Of a DNA stretch of 64,000 nucleotides, positions 35,523 through 46,147 are shown piece after piece (the first letter of the stretch is position 1; the number at the start of each line of letters is the position of its first letter). A program made the translations under genes and the position numbers. The stretch lies in assembly GCA_965231915.1 (NCBI GenBank), contig OZ246892.1:2443247-2507246 (forward strand), in the 5' to 3' direction. The stretch comes from Acidimicrobiales bacterium (GTDB taxonomy: Bacteria; Actinomycetota; Acidimicrobiia; Acidimicrobiales; Bin134). A model generated the notes under the pieces. The model searched no databases, was not told where the DNA came from, and saw nothing but the letters and a program-made list of their open reading frames with translations.

Positions 35523-35771
35523 TTAAAGCCGCTCTGGAACCCCAAGGAACTCTGCTGACTTGGTCAAGCTGGCCATTAGTGCATCTTGAGTGAATGACAC
35601 TGTCAGGTCAGCAAGCACGCCTTCGCATTCTGCCCACTCCGTGATCATGGCCAAGAGCTCTTCCAGGTCGTCCGAACCACCGGTGAATCCAATGTCGTCC
35701 TCAGCCCACCAACGGACGCCATCATCTTGGTTGAGGTGTATTCGCACTTGGTGCTTCATTCCTTCGAGCAC
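35523..35771 (-). CDS. HicB-like antitoxin (tentative)
   Basis: Immediately downstream of hicA. MKHQVRIHLNQDDGVRWWAEDDIGFTGGSDDLEELLAMITEW resembles HicB/DUF1902 N-domains. Confidence 0.55.
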   Translation of the reverse strand: MLEGMKHQVRIHLNQDDGVRWWAEDDIGFTGGSDDLEELLAMITEWAECEGVLADLTVSFTQDALMASLTKSAEFLGVPERL

Positions 35772-35781
35772 TCCTTACCAT

Positions 35782-36021
35782 CTACAGCAACTGCCGTATC
35801 TCGTCGTCGGTCAATCCAGCCCGCTCCACCAGCATATGCCGAAGCGCCCAGGGGGGAACTTCAGACCGGTCATGGAACGCGAACCCAATCGGCAAGCGCC
35901 CCTCCGCAACCAGTTTGCGATGTGATCCCCTTTGCCGCTCAATCCGGTATCCAATGCTCCTGAGCATTCTCAGCACCGTACGCGCCTTCAGCGCAGGAAA
36001 GTGGGACGACGGGATGGGCAT
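35782..36021 (-). CDS. hicA: HicA family mRNA-interferase toxin
   Basis: 79 aa. KARTVLRMLRSIGYRIERQRGSHRKL. Confidence 0.8.
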   Translation of the reverse strand: MPIPSSHFPALKARTVLRMLRSIGYRIERQRGSHRKLVAEGRLPIGFAFHDRSEVPPWALRHMLVERAGLTDDEIRQLL

Positions 36022-36162: not shown

Positions 36163-36269
36163 GTGTATCAAGGAGCCAGTGTCGTTCGAAAGGGTTTTCG
36201 GCTTGCTCGCCATCCCCAGCAGGGTGAAGAGCGCAAGGCTCAACTCGCCGCTGCCTAGGCTTGGTCCTG

Positions 36270-37124
36270 ATGGGAAAGATCGTTTTCGGTGACAACCTGC
36301 CGGTCTTGCGGGGCTTGTCCGACGGCAGCGTTGACCTCATCTATGTCGACCCGCCGTTCAACACCGGCAAGCGCCAAGAGCGCGAGCGGATCAAGACGGT
36401 GCATGACGAGGCCAACGGCGATCGAACAGGCTTCGCCGGTCGCCGCTACCAGACCATCCGCCTGGGCAAGTCTGGCTACGAAGACGCCTTCGACGACTAC
36501 ATGGCCTTCCTGGCTCCCCGCTTCGAGGAGGCCCACCGAGTGCTGGCCGACAACGGCAGTTTCTTCCTCCACATCGACTACCGGGAGGTCCACTACTGCA
36601 AGGTGCTTCTCGACCAGATCTTCGGCCGAGAGTCGTTCATGAACGAGATCATCTGGGCCTACGACTACGGCGCCCGCTCCAAGAGGAAGTGGTCAGCCAA
36701 GCACGACAGCATCCTGTGGTACGCCAAAGACCCTGCTGACTACACATTCTGCTTCGAGGAGATGGACCGGATCCCCTACATGGCCCCTGGTCTAGTAGGC
36801 AAGGAGAAGGCCGCCCGCGGCAAGACTCCCACCGACGTGTGGTGGCACACCATCGTGAGCCCCAACGGGAAAGAGAAAACCGGCTACGCCACCCAGAAGC
36901 CCCTCGGCGTCCTCGAACGTCTGGTGAAAGTCCACTCCCGCCCAGGCGACCTGTTGCTCGACTTCTTCGCCGGCAGCGGCACCCTCGGCGAAGCCGCCGC
37001 CAAACACGGCCGCGACTACCTCCTCATCGACAACAACCCCGAAGCCATCCAAGTCATGATCCAGCGCCTCGCCCCCACCAATCCCGAACTCATCGGCTGC
37101 GACGCTCTACTCGGAACGCCGTAG
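36270..37124 (+). CDS. beta-class N6-adenine or N4-cytosine DNA methyltransferase
   Basis: Motif IV DLIYVDPPFN lies N-terminal to motif I LLDFFAGSGTLGEAA. An alternative TTG start lies at 36261. Confidence 0.9.
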   Translation: MGKIVFGDNLPVLRGLSDGSVDLIYVDPPFNTGKRQERERIKTVHDEANGDRTGFAGRRYQTIRLGKSGYEDAFDDYMAFLAPRFEEAHRVLADNGSFFLHIDYREVHYCKVLLDQIFGRESFMNEIIWAYDYGARSKRKWSAKHDSILWYAKDPADYTFCFEEMDRIPYMAPGLVGKEKAARGKTPTDVWWHTIVSPNGKEKTGYATQKPLGVLERLVKVHSRPGDLLLDFFAGSGTLGEAAAKHGRDYLLIDNNPEAIQVMIQRLAPTNPELIGCDALLGTP

Positions 37125-37330
37125 AGCACTAAGGGCACTCCCCCAATTCCCATTCCCCGCCAGCAAACGCCGACTCAGCACACAGGTCGCCGACGAAGAT
37201 TCCCAGCGTGTCCGCATCGCATCCAAAGAATGACACCGGCAGCGACCCGACTTTGCCAGCCTCCTGGACCACATTCTCAAAGTAGCAACTTGTGAACTCA
37301 GGGAACCTATCTAACTTGGTCTGAGTTCTT

Positions 37331-37390
37331 TGTGGATATGTGGATATCTCTGTTGATTAAGTGTATTTCAGTATGATTATATATATTTCC
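37331..37390. repeat. TGTGGATAT-type module, copy 2
   Basis: TGTGGATATGTGGATATCTCTGTTGATT... The first 28 nt match copy 1 at 24/28 positions by hand alignment. An AT tract follows (GTATGATTATATATATTTCC). Confidence 0.5.
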
Positions 37391-37716
37391 ATCATGCCAT
37401 TTGGGAAGCCACCCACGATCAGTTGATGGGCCACCTAGACGATCCCCCCAGCCGCTGGCGCCAGCTGGGCGGCGCTAGTGGCCACGCCAACCTCGCCCTC
37501 CAAGCCGCCCTCGAGACCCGCGGCGGCGGCACTCTCCTCATCAAGACTGGCAAGGACTCTCCAGTCGAGTCACCAGTGATCGTCGTCGCTTGCTCAGAGC
37601 ACCTCATAGCCGCTGGTACGATAAGGAAGCAGAGGCGGGCGCATGATTCTCGACTGCCGACTCGCGTATCTGGACTAGAGGGGCAACTACTCTCTTTAAC
37701 GAGGAAAGGGGTGTGA

Positions 37717-39438
37717 ATGGCTCGACCCGCTGTACGCGAGTACAAAGTCGCGCATCGGCGGTCTGATCCGCTGCACCTTGATCCACACCCTGACACACCG
37801 GAGGAATCTGACTGGAGCGATTGGGTGCAGGGGTTGACTGCGCCGATCGCGGTCGATTTGTTTTGCGGAGCCGGAGGATTGAGTTGCGGGCTTGAGGCTG
37901 CTGGGTGGCAGGTTGTGCTGGCTGCTGACAGCGACGAGTGGGCATTGGAAAGCCATGGGCACAATGTGGCTGGACGGGCTCTGCACCTCGACTTGAGCGA
38001 ACAGCGGGATCGCGATGCGCTAGTAGAGGTCCTCGATGGCGTCGATGTGGGGCTTGTCGCTGGCGGGCCACCTTGCCAGCCCTTCTCGCGGGCAGGTCAC
38101 TCCAAGATCCGAAGCCTTGTCCAACAGGGAGTCCGAAGCGGTGAAGACTCCCGCCGTGAGCTTTGGCGAGCATTCCTGGAGATAGTGGAGGCGGTTCGGC
38201 CGCACGCGGTGCTCATGGAGAATGTGCCAGACATGGCGCTTGGAGACGGTTTTACCGTGTTGCGCAAGATGATCGAGCGTCTCGGCAAGGCTGGATATGA
38301 GGCCGAGGCAAGGATTGTGGATACTTGGCGTTTTGGCGTTCCACAACACCGGCAGCGGCTGATTCTGGTTGGCCTGAGGAACGGGGCTGTATTCGCGTGG
38401 CCCGGTGAATCGGCCCAAGCAACAGTGCGCGACGCGATCTGGGATCTACCGCGCCTTCATGTGGCGCCTAATACCCAGATCGGAGCATCAGAAATGGGTT
38501 ATGGGGCCGCCGCAGCATGTCGCGATGGTCATCCCTCAGCAATGGGAGAGGCGGCTGGCAACGGCGCTGCCCCATTGAGCGGCTTTGCCGCACAAGCTCG
38601 TGAAAGATGCGCAGGAGACAACCCGGGAATTGTCTACGACCACCAGACGCGTGCCGTGCGCGCTGATGACTTTGAGGCGTTCAAGCTCATGGACGGCCAC
38701 ACGCTGTATTCAGATTTGCCTGAGTCCTTGAAGCGCTACAGAGATGACATTTTCGACGACAAGTACAACCGACTTGACTGGGACAAGCTTTCCCGGACGA
38801 TCACGGCGCATATAGCAAAGGACGGCTACTGGTACATCCATCCTGAGCAGCCCCGGACCCTCACCGTCCGGGAGGCTGCCCGCCTCCAGACGTTTCCCGA
38901 CACGTTCCGATTCGCCGGATATCGGTCTCATCAGTTCCAACAGATCGGCAACGCTGTGCCCCCAGTGCTAGGGCAGATAATCGGGAAGGCAATCCTCTAT
39001 AGCCTGCGTGTCCAACCAACTCGCAAAGATCCGCAACCCTCGACTACTGCACTACGCAGCAGGTTCAGAGAGTCAGTACAGCGCTGGACCGACGAAGACC
39101 CTGTTGCAAAGCGAGTAGCGGCCTCACTGGCTAAGGGAGAAGGAAGACACGGCCAGCGGTGGACTGACCTGTTGAATGGCCCCGAGAGCGGGATAGTGGC
39201 ATCGGCTCCAGCCCTGCGCGTGGCATCAAGGGTTTCAGGTGCTGCCAACGAGGGCAGACTCCATAGGTCAACAGCACAGATGGAGTTGGCACAGTTAGTT
39301 GGCATCAGCGGACAAGCCAGGAAGCTCAACATCGCATCACATGTCCTCGGAACAGAAGTCTGCAAACCCGCTATTCCTCTATGCGACAAGTGCCCCGTCT
39401 CGGACATTTGCGCCGAATCCTCGGACGCTGAGCTTTGA
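37717..39438 (+). CDS. DNA (cytosine-5)-methyltransferase with a 143-aa C-terminal extension ending in an EndoIII/MutY-type Fe-S cluster loop
   Basis: Motifs I DLFCGAGG, IV GGPPCQPFS, VI ENV, VIII QHRQRL and X GNAVPP. The extension contains LAQLVGISGQARKLNIASHVLG and C-x6-C-x2-C-x5-C (CKPAIPLCDKCPVSDIC). Confidence 0.9.
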   Translation: MARPAVREYKVAHRRSDPLHLDPHPDTPEESDWSDWVQGLTAPIAVDLFCGAGGLSCGLEAAGWQVVLAADSDEWALESHGHNVAGRALHLDLSEQRDRDALVEVLDGVDVGLVAGGPPCQPFSRAGHSKIRSLVQQGVRSGEDSRRELWRAFLEIVEAVRPHAVLMENVPDMALGDGFTVLRKMIERLGKAGYEAEARIVDTWRFGVPQHRQRLILVGLRNGAVFAWPGESAQATVRDAIWDLPRLHVAPNTQIGASEMGYGAAAACRDGHPSAMGEAAGNGAAPLSGFAAQARERCAGDNPGIVYDHQTRAVRADDFEAFKLMDGHTLYSDLPESLKRYRDDIFDDKYNRLDWDKLSRTITAHIAKDGYWYIHPEQPRTLTVREAARLQTFPDTFRFAGYRSHQFQQIGNAVPPVLGQIIGKAILYSLRVQPTRKDPQPSTTALRSRFRESVQRWTDEDPVAKRVAASLAKGEGRHGQRWTDLLNGPESGIVASAPALRVASRVSGAANEGRLHRSTAQMELAQLVGISGQARKLNIASHVLGTEVCKPAIPLCDKCPVSDICAESSDAEL

Positions 39439-41636
39439 CTCTCACGAACGATCCACAGCGCACGGGACTGCGGTTCCGCCCTCGCGCCCGCCTGATGAAC
39501 ACTTTGGGACGCGAGCTGATCAGCAGCGATACGGTCGCGCTAGCCGAACTAGTCAAGAACTCCTATGACGCTGGCTCCAGTCTTGTGCTGGTTCGCATTT
39601 CCGGAGAAGTCGATGCGGATGGGGCGATCACACCTGACACAGGCACTATTAGCGTCCTAGATGACGGGCACGGAATGGACGAAGAACGGATAATCGGCAC
39701 CTGGCTAGAACCTGCCACCTCGTTCAGGAACGAGCGCGACCCGCTGCAAAATGGGCGGCGTGTGCTCGGAGAGAAGGGTGTCGGCAGGTTTGCGGCTGCC
39801 AAGCTGGGCAACATATTGAATCTGACTTCCAAAACCGCCGATGGTGAAGAAGTCCGGCTAGGACTGGATTGGCGAGCCTTCAATGATGACTCCAAATATC
39901 TGGAGGACATCGGAATCGACTTGTTAGTTGGCAGCACTGGTGTTTTTGCGCAGGATGGGGATGCCGAACGAACATGGCGGGAGCAGTCCGACTTCAGACA
40001 CGACGACCGAATCCGACCCACTCTTGGGCAAGGCACGCTAATCGAAATAGCAGGCCTCCACAGCCGGTGGAACCCAACGCTGGCCATAGCCGTACATCGG
40101 GCGCTCTCAAGGCTTGTAAGCCCTTTCGCAGAGGAACGCGGAGTAGGCGATGGTTTCAGGATATTCCTCGAGATCCCCGATGATCTTGGCCCTCATAGCG
40201 GGGCGGTCACATCAGATGACCTGCTAAAGCAAAGCCATTACAGCCTTAGCGCCGAAGTTGAGGCCGACGGGCAAGCCACAGTTCTGCTCACCCTGAAAGA
40301 CCGAAGTGAACGTGAACAGGAACTTATCCTGAGTCCCAGCCACGATAGCGAGGTGCTCAGATGTGGCCCGTTCGAGGTGTTCTTGTACGTCTGGGACCGC
40401 GATGCCGACTCCATGAGCAGCCTGGCCGAATACTTCGGTGAAAAGAAACTAGCTAGAGATGCGTTGGACGCAGCATCAGGCGTGAACATCTACCGCGACG
40501 AGTTCCGGGTCCTACCCTACGGTGAGATAGGAGATGACTGGCTGGGTCTAGACGCTCGAAGAGTCCAAAATCCGACGATGCGCCTGTCGAATAACCAGAT
40601 AGTGGGGTACGTCCTCATAGGCCGCGACGGAAACCCGGATCTTGTAGATCAGTCCAACAGAGAACGAATAGTCGAAACCCCAGCTTTCGCAGATCTCCGC
40701 GAAGCCGTCAAACAACTTCTAGGAATCATCGAGACGGAACGATTCAAGTTTCGCCCGAGGCAGCCGAAGAAGAGACGTGGCAGTCTGTTTGACCCGATTG
40801 ATCTAGAGCCACTGCGTGAGGCCGTTTCCGAGTTGGCACCGCACGATGAACAAATTCAAGGATTGGTTGACAAGGCTCAAAGTGATTTTGATGAACAACT
40901 CAAACATGCGGGCGAAGCACTATCCAGATACCATCGCCTGGCCACATTGGGGAGACTCACTGATATGGTCGTCCATGAGTTGGCCCAGCCGATTTTCGCA
41001 ATCAGGCAAACTGCTTCACTGAGCATGGCCAAACTTGACGACGTTCCCAACCAGGATCAGGGTGACATCCTAGAAGACATTGATGCCAACTTCAGCAGGA
41101 TAAAAGACCAAGCCGACATTGCAAACACCGTCGTGAGGCGCATCGAACCGTTCGGTGGCAGACAACGAGGCCGACCAGCTAGTCATATTGCAGAAGACGC
41201 CATCCGCAACACAATCGACCTACTCTCCTCTCAGATATCTGATGCTAAAGCGAAAGTCAACTTGCCGACAACGACACACCAGGTAACAATTGATAAAGGT
41301 GAGTTTCAGGAAATCCTCATCAACTTGCTTGACAACAGTCTCTACTGGTTGAAGCAATCTAAGGCAACACTAAGAGAGATCAGCGTGTCAGCAGAAAGAC
41401 ACGATGACGGCAGCCTGTCCATCGTAGTTGAGGACTCTGGACCAGGCATCTCTGATGAGCACAGAGACCTGATTTTCCAGCCGTACTTCTCTACAAAAGC
41501 CGACGGGGTCGGACTAGGTTTGGCCATTGCAGGAGAAATAGTCGAAGATTACTACGGAGGAAGTCTGGAGTTGCTACCACCCGGGCCGCTCGGAGGATCA
41601 AGGTTTAGGGCAACACTTAAAAAGCGAGTCAACTGA
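39435..41636 (+). CDS. cytoplasmic hybrid protein: N-terminal MORC/HATPase_c_3-like GHKL ATPase module plus C-terminal HisKA/HATPase_c histidine kinase
   Basis: N-terminal Bergerat motifs: ELVKNSYDAG, VLDDGHGM, GEKGVGRFAAAKLG. C-terminal H-box VVHELAQPIFAI, N-box LINLLDNSLYW, G1 VEDSGPGI, F IFQPYFSTK and G2 GVGLGLAIA. No TM segment. The TTG start overlaps the dcm stop; an alternative ATG lies at 39495. Confidence 0.85.
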   Translation: MTLTNDPQRTGLRFRPRARLMNTLGRELISSDTVALAELVKNSYDAGSSLVLVRISGEVDADGAITPDTGTISVLDDGHGMDEERIIGTWLEPATSFRNERDPLQNGRRVLGEKGVGRFAAAKLGNILNLTSKTADGEEVRLGLDWRAFNDDSKYLEDIGIDLLVGSTGVFAQDGDAERTWREQSDFRHDDRIRPTLGQGTLIEIAGLHSRWNPTLAIAVHRALSRLVSPFAEERGVGDGFRIFLEIPDDLGPHSGAVTSDDLLKQSHYSLSAEVEADGQATVLLTLKDRSEREQELILSPSHDSEVLRCGPFEVFLYVWDRDADSMSSLAEYFGEKKLARDALDAASGVNIYRDEFRVLPYGEIGDDWLGLDARRVQNPTMRLSNNQIVGYVLIGRDGNPDLVDQSNRERIVETPAFADLREAVKQLLGIIETERFKFRPRQPKKRRGSLFDPIDLEPLREAVSELAPHDEQIQGLVDKAQSDFDEQLKHAGEALSRYHRLATLGRLTDMVVHELAQPIFAIRQTASLSMAKLDDVPNQDQGDILEDIDANFSRIKDQADIANTVVRRIEPFGGRQRGRPASHIAEDAIRNTIDLLSSQISDAKAKVNLPTTTHQVTIDKGEFQEILINLLDNSLYWLKQSKATLREISVSAERHDDGSLSIVVEDSGPGISDEHRDLIFQPYFSTKADGVGLGLAIAGEIVEDYYGGSLELLPPGPLGGSRFRATLKKRVN

Positions 41637-41654
41637 AGCGAAAGGACTGGAAAC

Positions 41655-42791
41655 TTGGGAGCTGCGTGGCATATTTTGGTAGTTGATGATAACGAAGGAG
41701 TTGCAAAAGACACTGCTGAACTCTTGCATCTAAAATTGAACGCAGATTCACCGACAGGACGTATTATCGCCATGCCAGAAAGCTCCTTCGACAAAGCTTT
41801 GGAGAGGCTTGATCGGGGTGGCATTGACCTACTTGTCTTAGATGTTATTCAACAAGGAGAAATGACACCAAGATCAGAAGAAGAACTCAGAGGCATCGAT
41901 GTATTTGAGCAAGTGCGTGCCACACGGTTTCTCCCAATTGTGTTCCTAACTGCGCTCCCGAACGAGGTCGAACATTACAAGAACCCCCCTTTCGTGCATG
42001 TGGTATCTAAGCAGACAGATGACTTCAATGAAGAATTGGCCCAATGCATATCGGAATGCTTGAATTCCCTGTTTCCACGACTTTCTAGAGAACTACAGAA
42101 CCACATTGATCACGTATCTCGCGACTTTATGATCGAGTTTGTGGAAGAGAATTGGAATGAGTTGAGCGACAACGAAGAAGATATAGCCCATCTGCTGATG
42201 AGAAGACTGGGCGTCTCTTTCGACAATGGCGGCAATCTCTTTGAAGACAGATCTGAAGACTCCACGTCCCTGTTAGGAAAAGTCCCGCCAATTCGCCATT
42301 ACATCGTCCCCCCACCTAAAGAGTTCAGAATGGGCGACGTCTTAAGGCTCCCAGATGAGAGTGGCAGCAGTGAGACTGCAAATAATTGGTACGTCATCAT
42401 GACACCGAGCTGCGACTTGGCCAACGACAAAGCCGACTCGGTAATATTGGCCGAATGCGTTGGAATTAGCGCATTCAATGAGTATAAACAATGGCTAGAG
42501 AGTAGAAGCAGCTCTGCACGAAAGAATTTGACGCGTTTGCTTAGATCAAATCCAAGCGGTGGTCAACAATACCGTTACTACTATCTGCCGAAGGCGTGGA
42601 AGCTACCAGATTTGATTGTCGATCTTCAAAAGATCTTGCACATAGCCTATGAGAACCTTAACAACTACGAGAAGATCGCATCGATTGATAGTCCCTACGC
42701 TGAATCTCTATCACAACAGTTTCTCAGCTATATCGGACGTATTGGTACGCCTGACCTAGATATTGATCTTGCCATAGATCGAATGTCTTGA
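41655..42791 (+). CDS. response-regulator receiver (REC) domain fused to an uncharacterised ~240-aa output domain
   Basis: ILVVDDN, phospho-acceptor context IDLLVLDV, IVFLTA and HVVSKQ form a complete REC signature. I cannot assign the remainder to a family. This is the most AT-rich gene in the window. It starts 18 nt after the kinase stop, with AGGA upstream of a TTG start. Confidence 0.85.
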   Translation: MGAAWHILVVDDNEGVAKDTAELLHLKLNADSPTGRIIAMPESSFDKALERLDRGGIDLLVLDVIQQGEMTPRSEEELRGIDVFEQVRATRFLPIVFLTALPNEVEHYKNPPFVHVVSKQTDDFNEELAQCISECLNSLFPRLSRELQNHIDHVSRDFMIEFVEENWNELSDNEEDIAHLLMRRLGVSFDNGGNLFEDRSEDSTSLLGKVPPIRHYIVPPPKEFRMGDVLRLPDESGSSETANNWYVIMTPSCDLANDKADSVILAECVGISAFNEYKQWLESRSSSARKNLTRLLRSNPSGGQQYRYYYLPKAWKLPDLIVDLQKILHIAYENLNNYEKIASIDSPYAESLSQQFLSYIGRIGTPDLDIDLAIDRMS

Positions 42792-43047: not shown

Positions 43048-44067
43048 CTAATGCCTCGGCGTCAGATTTCGATAGTCCCCCTGGAAGACATGCTCGTGAT
43101 GCCATTCCAAGTACGAGTTTCCAGGGCGCTGCCCTCGCTTGGGAACAACCAACTTTGGCCTCAGGGCCTGGCCAAAGTACTGGTCGACTCCGGGATCAGC
43201 ACGACTGCTTGCCTCCAGTTTGGGGGATTGGTGGACCCTGAGGCCCCCGTTCACAGTAATCAGCCCTGTGTCAAAAGCAGCGTCATGAGTCGGGCAGGCT
43301 GCTACGCCGTTGCGAAAGTCCAACCGCTCATTGTCATCGCACGCTGCCCAGGGCTTGATGTGTGAGGCCACCAGGAGCTTGTTGCCCCTAAGCCTTTTGG
43401 GTGCAAATCCGCAAAAACCGCATGTGTAGCTAAAGTTTTCAAGCACTATCGTTGCGAATCTGTGCTGGCCGTTGCGAATCTTTTGCTCGACGACTCGTTC
43501 TGTTTCACCTACGTCTACCAGATGACGACCTCGTTGCTGGGCAACCATACTGGTCACCACCCTCAACAAATCCTGATGATTCAATTCGTCTTGACCCAAT
43601 AGATCAGCATAATCGAGTCCTTCCAGCATCAGAAAGTCCGGTAGTTTCTGAGTGGTAATTCCCAATTCTCGTGCTGCCGAGAGTACCTGGTTGTAGAGCT
43701 GCGTGAACAGGTTAGGATCTCTCCTCATAGCGGCGTAGAAATCTGGCTCGAATTTTCCGCCCCGATTCCTAGACCCTCCTTCCAGGTTCATCATCTTGTG
43801 AGTGATCGAAGTCGACGGCCTGACAAACAGCTCTGCGAGCTCATGCACCAGCGGCGGGGCGTTACGAATGGACTCGCTCCCATATTTGTGGGGATCGTCG
43901 ACGACCTGGAAGAGTCCATAGCACAAGATGGCTTCTACCGGCGTGAACGGCTCCTGACGAGGTTTCGGCTGGCGGCGAAGTATCTGGCTCCACTGCGATC
44001 GAGCCTGCTCGACTGTGAGGTCGAGGTAGTCGCTCAGCGATCGCACCCTGCCAACGTAGCCGGCCAC
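43048..44067 (-). CDS. HNH endonuclease (HNH_2-type) with an uncharacterised ~210-aa N-terminal region
   Basis: CGFCGF...LLVASHIKPWAACDDNERLDFRNGVAACPTHDAAFDTGLITV. Confidence 0.85.
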   Translation of the reverse strand: MAGYVGRVRSLSDYLDLTVEQARSQWSQILRRQPKPRQEPFTPVEAILCYGLFQVVDDPHKYGSESIRNAPPLVHELAELFVRPSTSITHKMMNLEGGSRNRGGKFEPDFYAAMRRDPNLFTQLYNQVLSAARELGITTQKLPDFLMLEGLDYADLLGQDELNHQDLLRVVTSMVAQQRGRHLVDVGETERVVEQKIRNGQHRFATIVLENFSYTCGFCGFAPKRLRGNKLLVASHIKPWAACDDNERLDFRNGVAACPTHDAAFDTGLITVNGGLRVHQSPKLEASSRADPGVDQYFGQALRPKLVVPKRGQRPGNSYLEWHHEHVFQGDYRNLTPRH

Positions 44068-44166: not shown

Positions 44167-44955
44167 ATGCCCGTGCTTGCACTCAAACCGGCAACCACCA
44201 CCTCTTCTCTGGTGGCCCGGTACACCCGAGCTCTAGTCATGCCCGAAGTCGCAGTCAGGCTCCCCGCGGTGACGGTGATGGAGTCCGGGATCACCCGCGT
44301 GCCCGTCGGGCGTGTCTCAGGGGAGCGCTTGTACCAGTCAGAGCACTTCTTCTTTTGGATGACGGTGATCGAGAACCTCCCCGAGTACACCTTCCAGCGA
44401 GCCTTGAGCTACGCCGACCCCGATAACGTCGAAGAGCTCGCTCAGTTAGCAGGCAGGCTCCGGCTTGAGTCGGTGGAACCTGGCAACTGGTACCCCACCG
44501 AAGAAGACGCGACGGCTCTCTTCTCAAGGTCAGGCGGCTTCGAAGGAGTCCAAGTCACAAAGCAGTCGACTATGGACACGCCGGAGGGGGCCAAGTGCAC
44601 TGCGATGATCTGGTTCACTCCTGACACCCTGGAGAAGATGAGCCTTGCGCTGCTGGCCGCAGCGTATCGGGAAGCAAACGAACAGGGGTACAAGCCGATC
44701 AGCGCTGAAATTGCTGAAGTGGTGCTCCCAGTGGCCAAGCAAATGGATCGATTCGCTGGGTCCGCAGTATTCATGCCGGATACCAGCTACGGGCTTGGAG
44801 GACTGCTGGAAGCCCGTCACGCCCTCAGAATCGGGTCGATCTCTGTACCGAAATCCAGGCTCGCGGAACTCGACGACATCATTTCAACCCATGGCGAGCA
44901 ATACCGCGAATATCTCGGTGGGCGTGATGCCTACGGTCTGACTGTCCGGGTATAA
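44167..44955 (+). CDS. hypothetical protein; start uncertain (candidates 44278 and 44359)
   Basis: Long ORF with a plausible composition from about MTVIENLPEYTFQRAL onward. No family recognised. Confidence 0.4.
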   Translation: MPVLALKPATTTSSLVARYTRALVMPEVAVRLPAVTVMESGITRVPVGRVSGERLYQSEHFFFWMTVIENLPEYTFQRALSYADPDNVEELAQLAGRLRLESVEPGNWYPTEEDATALFSRSGGFEGVQVTKQSTMDTPEGAKCTAMIWFTPDTLEKMSLALLAAAYREANEQGYKPISAEIAEVVLPVAKQMDRFAGSAVFMPDTSYGLGGLLEARHALRIGSISVPKSRLAELDDIISTHGEQYREYLGGRDAYGLTVRV

Positions 44956-44998: not shown

Positions 44999-46147
44999 TC
45001 AAGGCCAAAGCTGGTCCGAGGCCAGAGCTTCATGGAAGTACTCGAGGGGCCAGACATGGATGCCGTCTTCGGTTTGGAAGTGGTGGGTGCCGTTGTAGAT
45101 GAGGATGCGGCGGGCCAAGCCGGGGAGGTCGGCTATGGCTCGTAGGCCCTTGAGCATCGCGGTGTTGTAGCGGGCTGCGGCTTTGACTTCGATCGCCAGG
45201 TGCTCGCCGTCGCGGGTAAGTACGAAGTCGACTTCGGCGTTGGACTCGGTGGGCGACCAGTAGGCGATGGCATCGAACACGCTCTGGGTCACATTGTGGG
45301 TCCTCAGCAGCCCATAAACCCAGCCCTCCAACAGAGCGCCTCGCTCTTCGGCGGCAACCGGGCCGAGTTGGCGCTTAGCCGCCCGCACCAACCCCGGGTC
45401 GACCCAGTAGAGCTTGGGACGCTTCCGCTCGCGCACTCGGAGCTTGGCCTCGAACGCCTCTACGCGAGTGGCGAGCAGTGTGTCCTCTAGCACCTCCAGA
45501 TAGCCAGCCACGGTGGGTCGGGCAACCCCCGCATCTCTTGCCAATCCAGCCACATTGAGCGTCTGGGCATGCATCAGCGCGGCCACCGGGAGGAACCGAA
45601 TGAAGCCAGGCAGATTCCGCACTGCGGCCTCAGCTCTGATCTCCTCGCGAAGATAGAGCTGGGTGTAGCTCTCCAAGACTTCACGGCGGTCATCGGCCGC
45701 CCACACCAGCGGAATGGTCCCGAAACTGAGGGCGTCGTCCAAATCGAAATCGCCACCCAACTCGGCCGGGGTGAGCGGATACATGGCCTTGTGGGCTGCC
45801 CGCCCGGCCAGCAGATTCGTGCCTGCTGTCTTGAGTTTCCGAGCGCTGGAGCCCAGCAGAGCAAAGCGCAAACCTCGTTCTTCGATCTGACGGTGAACCT
45901 CATTGAGCAGGGCGGGAATGCGCTGCACTTCGTCCACCACTATCCACTCATCAGGCTCAGCGCCCGACAGGAGGTTTCCGAACAGCGCTGGATCAGCCAG
46001 CAAATCTGTGTAAAGGGCCTCGTCGAGCAGGTCGAAGCGCGTGGCGTCGGGCAGCATCATGCGCACCCAGGTGCTCTTGCCCACGCCGCGCACGCCGAAC
46101 AGGAAGAAGCTCCGCTCGGGAACCGGCAAGAGCCTCGTGTATACCAT
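44999..46147 (-). CDS. AAA ATPase with DUF4143 domain (AAA_14/DUF4143 family)
   Basis: Walker A FGVRGVGKST, Walker B WIVVDEVQ, and the typical C-terminal ...AEVDFVL...AIEVK block. Confidence 0.85.
   Translation of the reverse strand: MVYTRLLPVPERSFFLFGVRGVGKSTWVRMMLPDATRFDLLDEALYTDLLADPALFGNLLSGAEPDEWIVVDEVQRIPALLNEVHRQIEERGLRFALLGSSARKLKTAGTNLLAGRAAHKAMYPLTPAELGGDFDLDDALSFGTIPLVWAADDRREVLESYTQLYLREEIRAEAAVRNLPGFIRFLPVAALMHAQTLNVAGLARDAGVARPTVAGYLEVLEDTLLATRVEAFEAKLRVRERKRPKLYWVDPGLVRAAKRQLGPVAAEERGALLEGWVYGLLRTHNVTQSVFDAIAYWSPTESNAEVDFVLTRDGEHLAIEVKAAARYNTAMLKGLRAIADLPGLARRILIYNGTHHFQTEDGIHVWPLEYFHEALASDQLWP

Follow-up and report, generated by a model that had tools for sequence, protein, structure and literature searches.

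A mobile cassette combining a cytosine methylase and a soluble double-GHKL histidine kinase with a receiver protein of predicted MazF/PemK/CcdB-type fold

A 64,000-nucleotide (nt) stretch of an Acidimicrobiales bacterium genome (contig OZ246892.1, GenBank assembly GCA_965231915.1; this whole stretch is hereafter called the window, and positions are counted from its first letter) was found to carry a cassette of three genes (Table 1). They encode a C5 cytosine DNA methyltransferase (MTase; gene dcm), a soluble histidine kinase with two GHKL ATPase domains, and a receiver-effector protein (hereafter the receiver) in which a receiver (REC) domain and a helical linker precede a C-terminal domain (C-domain). 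Our confidence in the anatomy of the three-gene cassette, which is directly observed, is much higher than in the full mechanism proposed below; the C-domain is assigned to the MazF/PemK/CcdB fold with moderate confidence, based on structural models. We tentatively suggest, with slightly less than even confidence, that the cassette is a methylation-guarded phosphorelay, which would bring about abortive infection or addiction by switching an effector with a toxin fold.

Gene order, conservation and mobility of the cassette

Linkage of the three genes was assessed in a census of 80 loci, which were collected with the family motif [VI][VIL][LM]TP[ST]CDL from contigs of one genome per species and whose open reading frames (ORFs) were scored with hidden Markov models built from seeds. 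In the 57 loci with enough flanking sequence, the kinase gene is directly upstream of the receiver gene in 55, and a C5 MTase is adjacent in 50 (upstream of the kinase in 33 and downstream of the receiver in 21). Thus, dcm belongs to the unit. An earlier annotation of the window, made from its sequence alone (the original prediction), had proposed a two-gene core inside a restriction-modification (R-M) cluster, and this view has to be replaced by that of a three-gene unit; what is confirmed is a cytoplasmic kinase/receiver pair that is conserved and has its phosphotransfer residues (H514 and D63) intact. In addition, a gene for Vsr or an HhH-GPD glycosylase is adjacent in 27/57 loci, and an HNH_2 gene in 2/57. 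All metagenome contexts that were opened show the order C5 MTase, kinase, receiver, with overlapping stops and starts and often with Vsr or HhH-GPD present. No conventional DNA nuclease is conserved in the cassette according to the 57-locus census and the Pfam, PADLOC and NCBIfam searches. The cassette also contains no PNP domain and no second REC gene, in agreement with the proposal that it lacks a histidine phosphotransfer (Hpt) or buffer protein and a PNP effector.

In the window, the ORF coordinates bear out the tight packing of the three genes on the plus strand: the TGA of dcm and the TTG of the kinase overlap as TTGA, and the TTG of the receiver lies 18 nt past the kinase stop, with an AGGA located 10-13 nt upstream. 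The TTG start of the kinase is supported by a peptide encoded ahead of the first kinase ATG, GLRFRPRARLM, which recurs in 5 of the 12 homologues inspected (47-67% identical). Likewise, the receiver start at 41655 is supported by its homologues, which share this start position in the alignment. A database protein (P0001, 339 aa) that is 100% identical to the window receiver over the 90% covered begins at M40; such a start would drop strand beta1 of the REC domain and its acidic pair (window 41655-41771).

The cassette is mobile. Its flanks differ from locus to locus, and copies were found on Campylobacter plasmids (39 records), on Acaryochloris pREB1 and on one Bacillus plasmid, 40 of the 42 plasmid matches being on plasmids typed as conjugative. 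The pair lies in mobile or defence-type contexts, some copies being located in islands beside integrases, insertion sequence (IS) elements and toxin-antitoxin genes. The hosts include Acidimicrobiia (closest to the window), Planctomycetota, Verrucomicrobiota, Bacteroidota, Streptococcus mitis, Haemophilus, Omnitrophota and a metagenome-assembled genome (MAG) of Aenigmatarchaeota. The predicted AT-richness of the two signalling genes is also evident, with a guanine-plus-cytosine (GC) content of 0.54 in the kinase and 0.459 in the receiver versus 0.643 in the backbone outside the island. No tRNA was found at the island borders in the 30-50 kb region.

Table 1. Positions of the cassette genes, their domains and neighbouring genes in the window
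Feature	Position (nt)	Strand	Evidence
dcm, C5 cytosine DNA methyltransferase, cassette gene 1	37717..39438	+	Pfam DNA_methylase, E 1e-55; TIGR00675 dcm
dcm C-terminal tail, like the last third of an HhH-GPD (MutY/Nth-type) glycosylase	39175..39432	+	NCBIfam mutY, E 2.7e-4, residues 501-568
Soluble double-GHKL histidine kinase, 733 aa	39435..41636	+	Pfam, NCBIfam, motifs, census
Kinase N-terminal Hsp90/MutL/MORC-type GHKL ATPase, residues 33-154	39531..39896	+	Pfam HATPase_c_3, E 3e-20
Kinase middle domain, residues ~155-480	39897..40874	+	Conservation map; invariant alignment columns
Kinase DHp/H-box region, residues 505-558	40947..41108	+	Pfam HisKA, weak, E 4e-3, below gathering score
Kinase catalytic ATP-binding (CA) domain, residues 622-730	41298..41624	+	Pfam HATPase_c, E 1e-24
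Receiver-effector protein, 378 aa	41655..42791	+	REC signature; AlphaFold2/Foldseek
REC domain, residues 1-120	41655..42014	+	D12, D58, D63, K119 invariant; AlphaFold2 and Foldseek
Three-helix linker, residues ~121-195	42015..42239	+	AlphaFold2 secondary structure: H124-137, H139-170, H174-191
Predicted C-terminal MazF/PemK/CcdB-fold domain, residues 196-378 and stop codon	42240..42791	+	AlphaFold2 and Foldseek
82-aa ORF placed like a HicB partner, no Pfam match	35523-35771	-	
HicA toxin ORF	35782-36021	-	Pfam, E 5e-10
N6_N4 MTase	36261-37124		Library scan
HNH_2 protein, like phosphorothioate-dependent (type IV-like) restriction endonucleases	43048-44067	-	NCBIfam, E 2e-19
AAA_14/DUF4143 ATPase	44999-46147	-	Library scan

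Domain architecture of the kinase, the receiver and the methylase

The kinase contains two full Bergerat-fold sets, as originally described, and all of their boxes could be located. In the N-terminal set, the ExxxN, DxGxG and GxxGxG motifs are intact (ELVKNSYDA, residues 38-46; LDDGHGM, 75-81; GEKGVGRFAAAKLG, 112-125). A profile of the N-terminal 480 residues matched HtpG, endoplasmin (Grp94), TRAP1, MutL and MORC3 in the PDB, in all cases only over residues 17-148, so that by both Pfam and PDB profile matches a GHKL module of Hsp90/MutL/MORC type does occupy the usual place of a sensor domain. The kinase N-terminus also matches the BbrUII/HgiDII family of restriction enzymes (NCBIfam NF050001, E = 5e-14), but only over its first ~125 residues, and a type II restriction endonuclease model of PADLOC matches the same stretch. 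From its sequence, this GHKL domain is presumed to act as a sensor or clamp. The middle domain, for which neither Pfam nor the PDB-sequence profile search returned a match, contains the most strongly conserved stretch of the protein, YRDxFRVLPxGE..DDWLxLDxRRVQxPTxxLSNNQ..DQxNRE.

The remainder of the protein resembles a conventional kinase core, which aligns over its full length with the FixL and HK853 structures. The phospho-accepting His514 (HELAQP, H514-E515) is encoded at nt 40974-40976, and the boxes of the CA domain are found at residues 630-638 (N), 666-672 (G1), 680-687 (F) and 691-699 (G2). In a 118-sequence alignment, the core residues of each kinase motif, including H514, are conserved in at least 95% of the sequences, and the flanking positions vary. 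As the highest 19-residue Kyte-Doolittle mean is only 1.01, no transmembrane segment is expected, in accordance with the soluble kinase first proposed. Taking sequence and model together, the canonical two-component features are all present in the pair: the DHp histidine with its acidic residue, the N, G1, F and G2 boxes, and the REC pocket.

Although the Pfam REC match of the window receiver is weak (E = 0.011), PF00072 was matched by 63/64 and 91/106 receiver family members in two alignments. D12, D58, D63 and K119 are invariant in the 64 receiver sequences, T99 is present in the window receiver, and the acceptor Asp63 is encoded at nt 41841-41843. The AlphaFold2 model of the full-length receiver has a predicted local distance difference test (pLDDT) score of 88 (~90 in the REC part), and a Foldseek search with this model retrieved REC domains at target-normalised template modelling (TM) scores of 0.7-0.79. 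The full REC signature with D63 as acceptor, noted before, is therefore upheld by both the invariant residues and the modelled fold. In the linker, the motif RRL (R183, R184, L185) is conserved. No helix-turn-helix (HTH), winged HTH (wHTH) or other DNA-binding output domain was detected in the receiver with Pfam and NCBIfam, or in its family members with Pfam.

The ~240 residues downstream of the REC domain had been left without an assignment. At the sequence level this remains so, since the C-domain has no Pfam, NCBIfam, PADLOC or PDB-sequence match; AlphaFold2 and Foldseek resolve the region into the helical linker and a MazF-like domain, which is not an ordinary DNA-binding output. In the full-length model, an alpha/beta domain is located at residues 212-378. 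Residues 196-378 were modelled alone (30-sequence alignment, pLDDT 82), because Foldseek with the whole receiver returned REC only. When the C-domain model was compared with the PDB, the top 50 matches were all MazF, MoxT, YdcE/EndoA, CcdB or the ToxN-type toxin CptN, with a best E-value of 3e-4, target-normalised TM scores of 0.49-0.71 and CcdB at rank 47. Against the viral models of BFVD, 12 of the top 13 matches carry the names PemK-like, PemK/MazF family toxin or endoribonuclease, the other being unnamed. Foldseek probabilities range from 0.96 to 1.00 across the toxin matches in both databases. Moreover, a weak local hhalign alignment spans MazF residues 3-107 in a register that agrees with the fold match, pairing Y216..P219..G227-D228 with the MazF YxPxxGD motif, VIMTP with VVLSP, and VDLQ with ADQ.

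Compared with MazF, the modelled C-domain has a helical insert of ~30 residues and extra C-terminal helices. Its near-invariant residues are P251, C253, D254, C268, R307, D323, Q325, R362 and G364, of which only C253 and G364 are strictly invariant across 106 diverse members; Cys253-Asp254 is encoded at nt 42411-42416. A PD-(D/E)xK nuclease was initially suspected from the motifs SCD...ExC and DxQ, and this idea was dropped when Foldseek gave no nuclease fold. In the census loci, no conserved small antitoxin-like gene stands beside the receiver gene; it may be that the REC domain and the linker serve as a built-in regulator of the C-domain.

The C-domain family is large: in a library clustered at 50% identity, its profile detected 2406 representatives with E <= 1e-3, of which 1184 reach E <= 1e-10. 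Among the best 150 of these 2406, nearly all are ~375-400 aa long with the C-domain at ~200-380, and the uniform length and domain placement in this set indicate that the architecture of REC, linker and C-domain is fixed. A word-indexed search with the receiver yielded 123 clusters, all of ~380-400 aa.

The C-terminal tail of dcm is 31% identical over 86 aa (E = 2e-11) to the product of a separate HhH-GPD gene in one cassette (L007), and it keeps the C-X6-C-X2-C-X5-C iron-sulfur loop, as judged from the cysteine spacing read from the sequence. A complete separate glycosylase gene is located between dcm and the kinase gene in four cassettes (L007, L040, L043 and L046). The tail may be a fusion remnant and not an active domain. 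Vsr and HhH-GPD-type glycosylases repair T:G mismatches arising from the deamination of 5-methylcytosine (5mC). Their presence is thus explained by the methylase and adds no restriction function.

Known relatives, proposed mechanism and alternatives

Kinase/receiver pairs of a related kind have already been reported, and one methylase-linked phosphorelay was validated as a defence system in 2025, so the cassette cannot be regarded as being of an undescribed kind, as had been claimed for it. In a bioinformatic study without experiments, Bellieny-Rabelo, Pretorius and Moleleki (2021; PMC8011034) described soluble kinases composed of HATPase_c_3, a new DHp domain (HEF_HK, PF19191) and HATPase_c. 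A REC-like protein (Response_reg_2, PF19192) adjoins the kinase in 91.6% of 644 regions, C5 methylases are found upstream and Vsr downstream, and HNH_2 is the commonest nuclease nearby; no function was given for the C-terminal part of the receiver (PMC8011034). The family of the window pair shares with these systems the soluble HATPase_c_3-DHp-HATPase_c kinase, the REC gene directly downstream, the adjacent C5 methylase and Vsr and, in some cases, a nearby HNH_2 gene, and both are proposed to derive from paraMORC proteins. However, the published receiver has ~600 aa and is recognised by PF19192, whereas that of the window has 378 aa and a REC domain recognised by PF00072. At E <= 0.1, PF19191 matched neither the window kinase nor three plasmid homologues; kinase relatives from Acinetobacter and Agrobacterium match it weakly, which indicates that the model is present in the library. 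PF19192 was matched by 0/64 (E <= 1) and 0/106 (E <= 0.01) family members and by 0/3 plasmid receivers (E <= 0.1); this model matched nothing at all, including the ~637-aa partners of the Acinetobacter and Agrobacterium kinases, and may be missing from the Pfam copy searched. These partners have no Pfam match and show only a marginal REC match to the window receiver family. The lack of PF19191 matches, the length of the published receiver and this marginal match probably place the window system in a sibling branch of HEF_HK/Response_reg_2 with a different receiver-effector. On a Bacteroides plasmid, a kinase, a 209-aa REC protein, an HNH protein and an N6 methylase form a third, Ambrosia-like combination, which suggests one kinase chassis with swappable receiver-effectors. 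The kinase relatives with these other downstream partners are located in L015 (4629-8883), L017 (4629-8932) and L016 (4986-10088).

Ambrosia is a five-gene anti-phage system that was reported in Gammaproteobacteria. Its defence against Pseudomonas phages was validated and depends on each of the five proteins and on the receiver Asp; its reporter expression increases on infection, and a REC-wHTH protein has been proposed as the activator of the R-M genes (bioRxiv 10.1101/2025.09.30.679545). A histidine kinase/Hsp90-like ATPase and a REC protein clustered with a DNA methylase are common to Ambrosia and the window cassette. When the two are compared by description, Ambrosia has an XRE regulator, an N6-adenine methylase, the REC-wHTH protein and a type IV HNH effector, whereas the present cassette has a C5 methylase and a predicted MazF-fold domain, with HNH_2 adjacent in 2/57 loci; no XRE gene adjoins the cassette in the window. 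Detocs (Rousset et al. 2023) likewise uses a His-Asp phosphorelay with an effector fused to a receiver domain, but its separate buffer receiver, its PNP nucleosidase effector and its lack of a methylase link have no counterpart here, and PADLOC gave no Detocs-type match among the window proteins.

With the MazF/PemK/Kid/ToxN toxins, the C-domain appears to share the fold, and the YxPxxGD and (I/V)xxTP motifs align in register. MazF and PemK toxins, however, have a separate antitoxin and a catalytic Arg/Thr pair; the window domain lacks both and is fused to REC and linker. Of the two parts of a type II R-M system, the methylase is present in the cassette, and no recognisable DNA endonuclease is conserved in it; the restriction role might be played by the kinase/receiver pair. 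The paraMORC and BbrUII/HgiDII enzymes have the same N-terminal MutL/MORC-type GHKL ATPase next to cytosine methylases and Vsr; those proteins combine it with a nuclease or helicase, and the present kinase with a histidine-kinase core and hence a phosphorelay. Iyer, Abhiman and Aravind (2008; PMC2292703) described the association of paraMORC, methylase and Vsr and mentioned no receiver or two-component link. Full-text literature searches found no paper describing a REC-MazF/PemK fusion linked to a cytosine methylase. The family of the receiver, the placement of its C-domain in a toxin fold and the resulting notion of toxicity that is guarded by methylation and gated by a phosphorelay appear to be new.

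ATP-driven dimerisation is established for MutL, MORC and GyrB, and MazF is active as a dimer, between whose subunits the RNA groove is located. On this background, a methylation-guarded phosphorelay might work as follows. The methylase would mark host DNA, and the kinase would read the DNA state through its N-terminal GHKL and middle domains, the signal being sites without the cognate 5mC. Such unmarked sites would occur in incoming phage or plasmid DNA, or in host DNA once the methylase has been lost. ATP-driven dimerisation of the GHKL domain could then toggle autophosphorylation at His514, from which the phosphoryl group would move to Asp63 of the receiver. The phosphorylated REC domain and linker would in turn free or dimerise the predicted MazF/PemK-fold domain and thus turn on a toxic activity, most likely RNA cleavage at a non-canonical site around Cys253-Asp254, Arg307 and Asp323. 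The outcome would be growth arrest or abortive infection together with addiction, with the phosphorelay-to-toxin branch replacing a restriction nuclease. The most specific version of this scheme, that of an R-M system without a restriction nuclease, in which the GHKL-kinase reads the absence of 5mC and phosphotransfer to a MazF-fold domain with a new Cys-Asp-centred site halts the cell, is in our view possible but less likely than not.

The closest genome offers an anecdotal observation in this respect. In the Acidimicrobiales MAG OZ242339.1 (L001 1405-9981 / L018), which is syntenic with the window, dcm is absent and IS elements (DDE_Tnp_1, rve, IS110) are located upstream; these elements have shortened the kinase to 569 aa by removing its N-terminal GHKL domain, and the receiver is intact (88% identical). 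This copy looks like a decaying one that has lost sensor and methylase together, and such a joint loss fits the methylation-guard reading.

Several points weigh against the proposed phosphorelay-gated toxin. The query-normalised TM score of the C-domain in Foldseek is ~0.43, and hhalign of the C-domain against six MazF/Kid-type sequences gave a weak result (P = 0.0026, probability 11.6%). The positions of the MazF catalytic residues (R29 and T52 in E. coli) are not conserved in the C-domain family, and Pfam PemK_toxin matched neither the receiver nor its family members, so the C-domain may be a binding domain that does not cleave, or may have a different substrate. DNA binding by the kinase is a prediction, and phosphorylation could equally switch the effector off. 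Furthermore, no C5 MTase adjoins the pair in 7/57 loci; this is awkward if unmethylated self DNA is lethal, unless a methylase encoded elsewhere protects it or these copies are inactive.

We also considered explanations other than the methylation-guarded phosphorelay. The pair might regulate an R-M system, with the kinase sensing infection or stress, the phosphorylated receiver controlling the methylase or a distant nuclease, and the C-domain binding nucleic acid. Regulation of this sort has been proposed both for the HEF_HK/Response_reg_2 pairs (PMC8011034) and for Ambrosia, whose reporter expression rises upon infection (10.1101/2025.09.30.679545). It would also suit a domain of the MazF/CcdB fold, whose members bind nucleic acids or proteins, in which the catalytic residues of MazF are missing. 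We nevertheless regard this explanation as unlikely: Pfam and NCBIfam detect no DNA-binding output (HTH, wHTH or other) in the receiver, the cassette has no conserved nuclease gene to control, and the Cys-Asp pair with the conserved Arg, Asp and Gln resembles an active site more than a binding surface. True restriction is another alternative, in which the MazF/CcdB-fold domain would damage DNA directly or via gyrase, like CcdB. It would fit the tight linkage with a C5 MTase and Vsr, as in type II R-M systems, the resemblance of the kinase GHKL domain to the BbrUII/HgiDII restriction enzymes and the presence of CcdB among the structural matches (rank 47). However, MazF, PemK and CptN-type ribonucleases dominate both Foldseek lists, and no PD-(D/E)xK, HNH or GIY-YIG signature was detected in the kinase or the receiver with Pfam, PADLOC or NCBIfam, which leaves DNA restriction quite improbable.

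The remaining alternatives concern what the cassette is selected for. The same steps could constitute a selfish addiction module (post-segregational killing) that is maintained for the benefit of its element rather than for defence. In favour of such a role are the conjugative typing of 40/42 plasmid matches, the islands with integrases, IS elements and toxin-antitoxin genes nearby, and a toxin-type fold suited to element maintenance; we regard a mainly selfish role as quite improbable. Finally, the pair could be an ordinary housekeeping two-component system that stands beside R-M genes by chance, since FixL, AtoS and ZraS-type kinases give good alignments with the kinase core and the database labels read CheY-like or response regulator. 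The census contradicts this explanation. The homologues do not occur in housekeeping contexts: their methylase linkage (50/57) extends across many phyla with unrelated flanks, plasmid carriage and atypical GC, and the receiver has no DNA-binding output. Thus, a housekeeping role has next to no probability.

If the methylation-guarded phosphorelay proves true, it would provide the first two-component kinase that senses the methylation state of DNA, and also the first MazF-fold toxin gated by phosphorylation. Methylation-based self/non-self recognition would then be wired through a phosphorelay to abortive infection or addiction, beyond DNA cleavage, and the prokaryotic MORC-like GHKL ATPases, whose mechanism has been open since 2008, would gain a concrete sensing role that can be assayed. 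The MazF/PemK fold would also gain a phosphorylation-gated member with a different active site, and a widespread domain without a Pfam family would get a name (it is found in Campylobacter conjugative plasmids, Streptococcus mitis, Haemophilus and environmental phyla). Such a result would add to both the bioinformatic report of 2021 and the Ambrosia study of 2025 by pointing to one kinase chassis with interchangeable receiver-effectors.

Other genes around the cassette

The list of neighbouring genes in the original prediction was largely recovered: the N6_N4 MTase, the HNH_2 protein, HicA and the AAA_14/DUF4143 ATPase are all present in the window (Table 1). By contrast, the ORF in the position of HicB has no Pfam match, and the supposed MTase remnant gave no signal in a six-frame search of 37100-37760. 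In ~15 annotated contexts, no N6 MTase, hicAB or AAA/DUF4143 gene was found beside the cassette, the census itself having had no models for these families. The HNH_2 gene also stands beside the cassette in L001/L018, in L031 and on the P0119 contig; most likely, it is a separate defence gene by which the cassette is occasionally accompanied. The N6_N4 MTase has no obvious partner nuclease, and its GC content at third codon positions is 0.85, versus 0.70-0.78 in host-like genes and 0.48-0.61 in the cassette genes. In addition, a 262-aa ORF (44167-44955) without a family match is conserved beside the island in the sister genome (L001 12314-13102).

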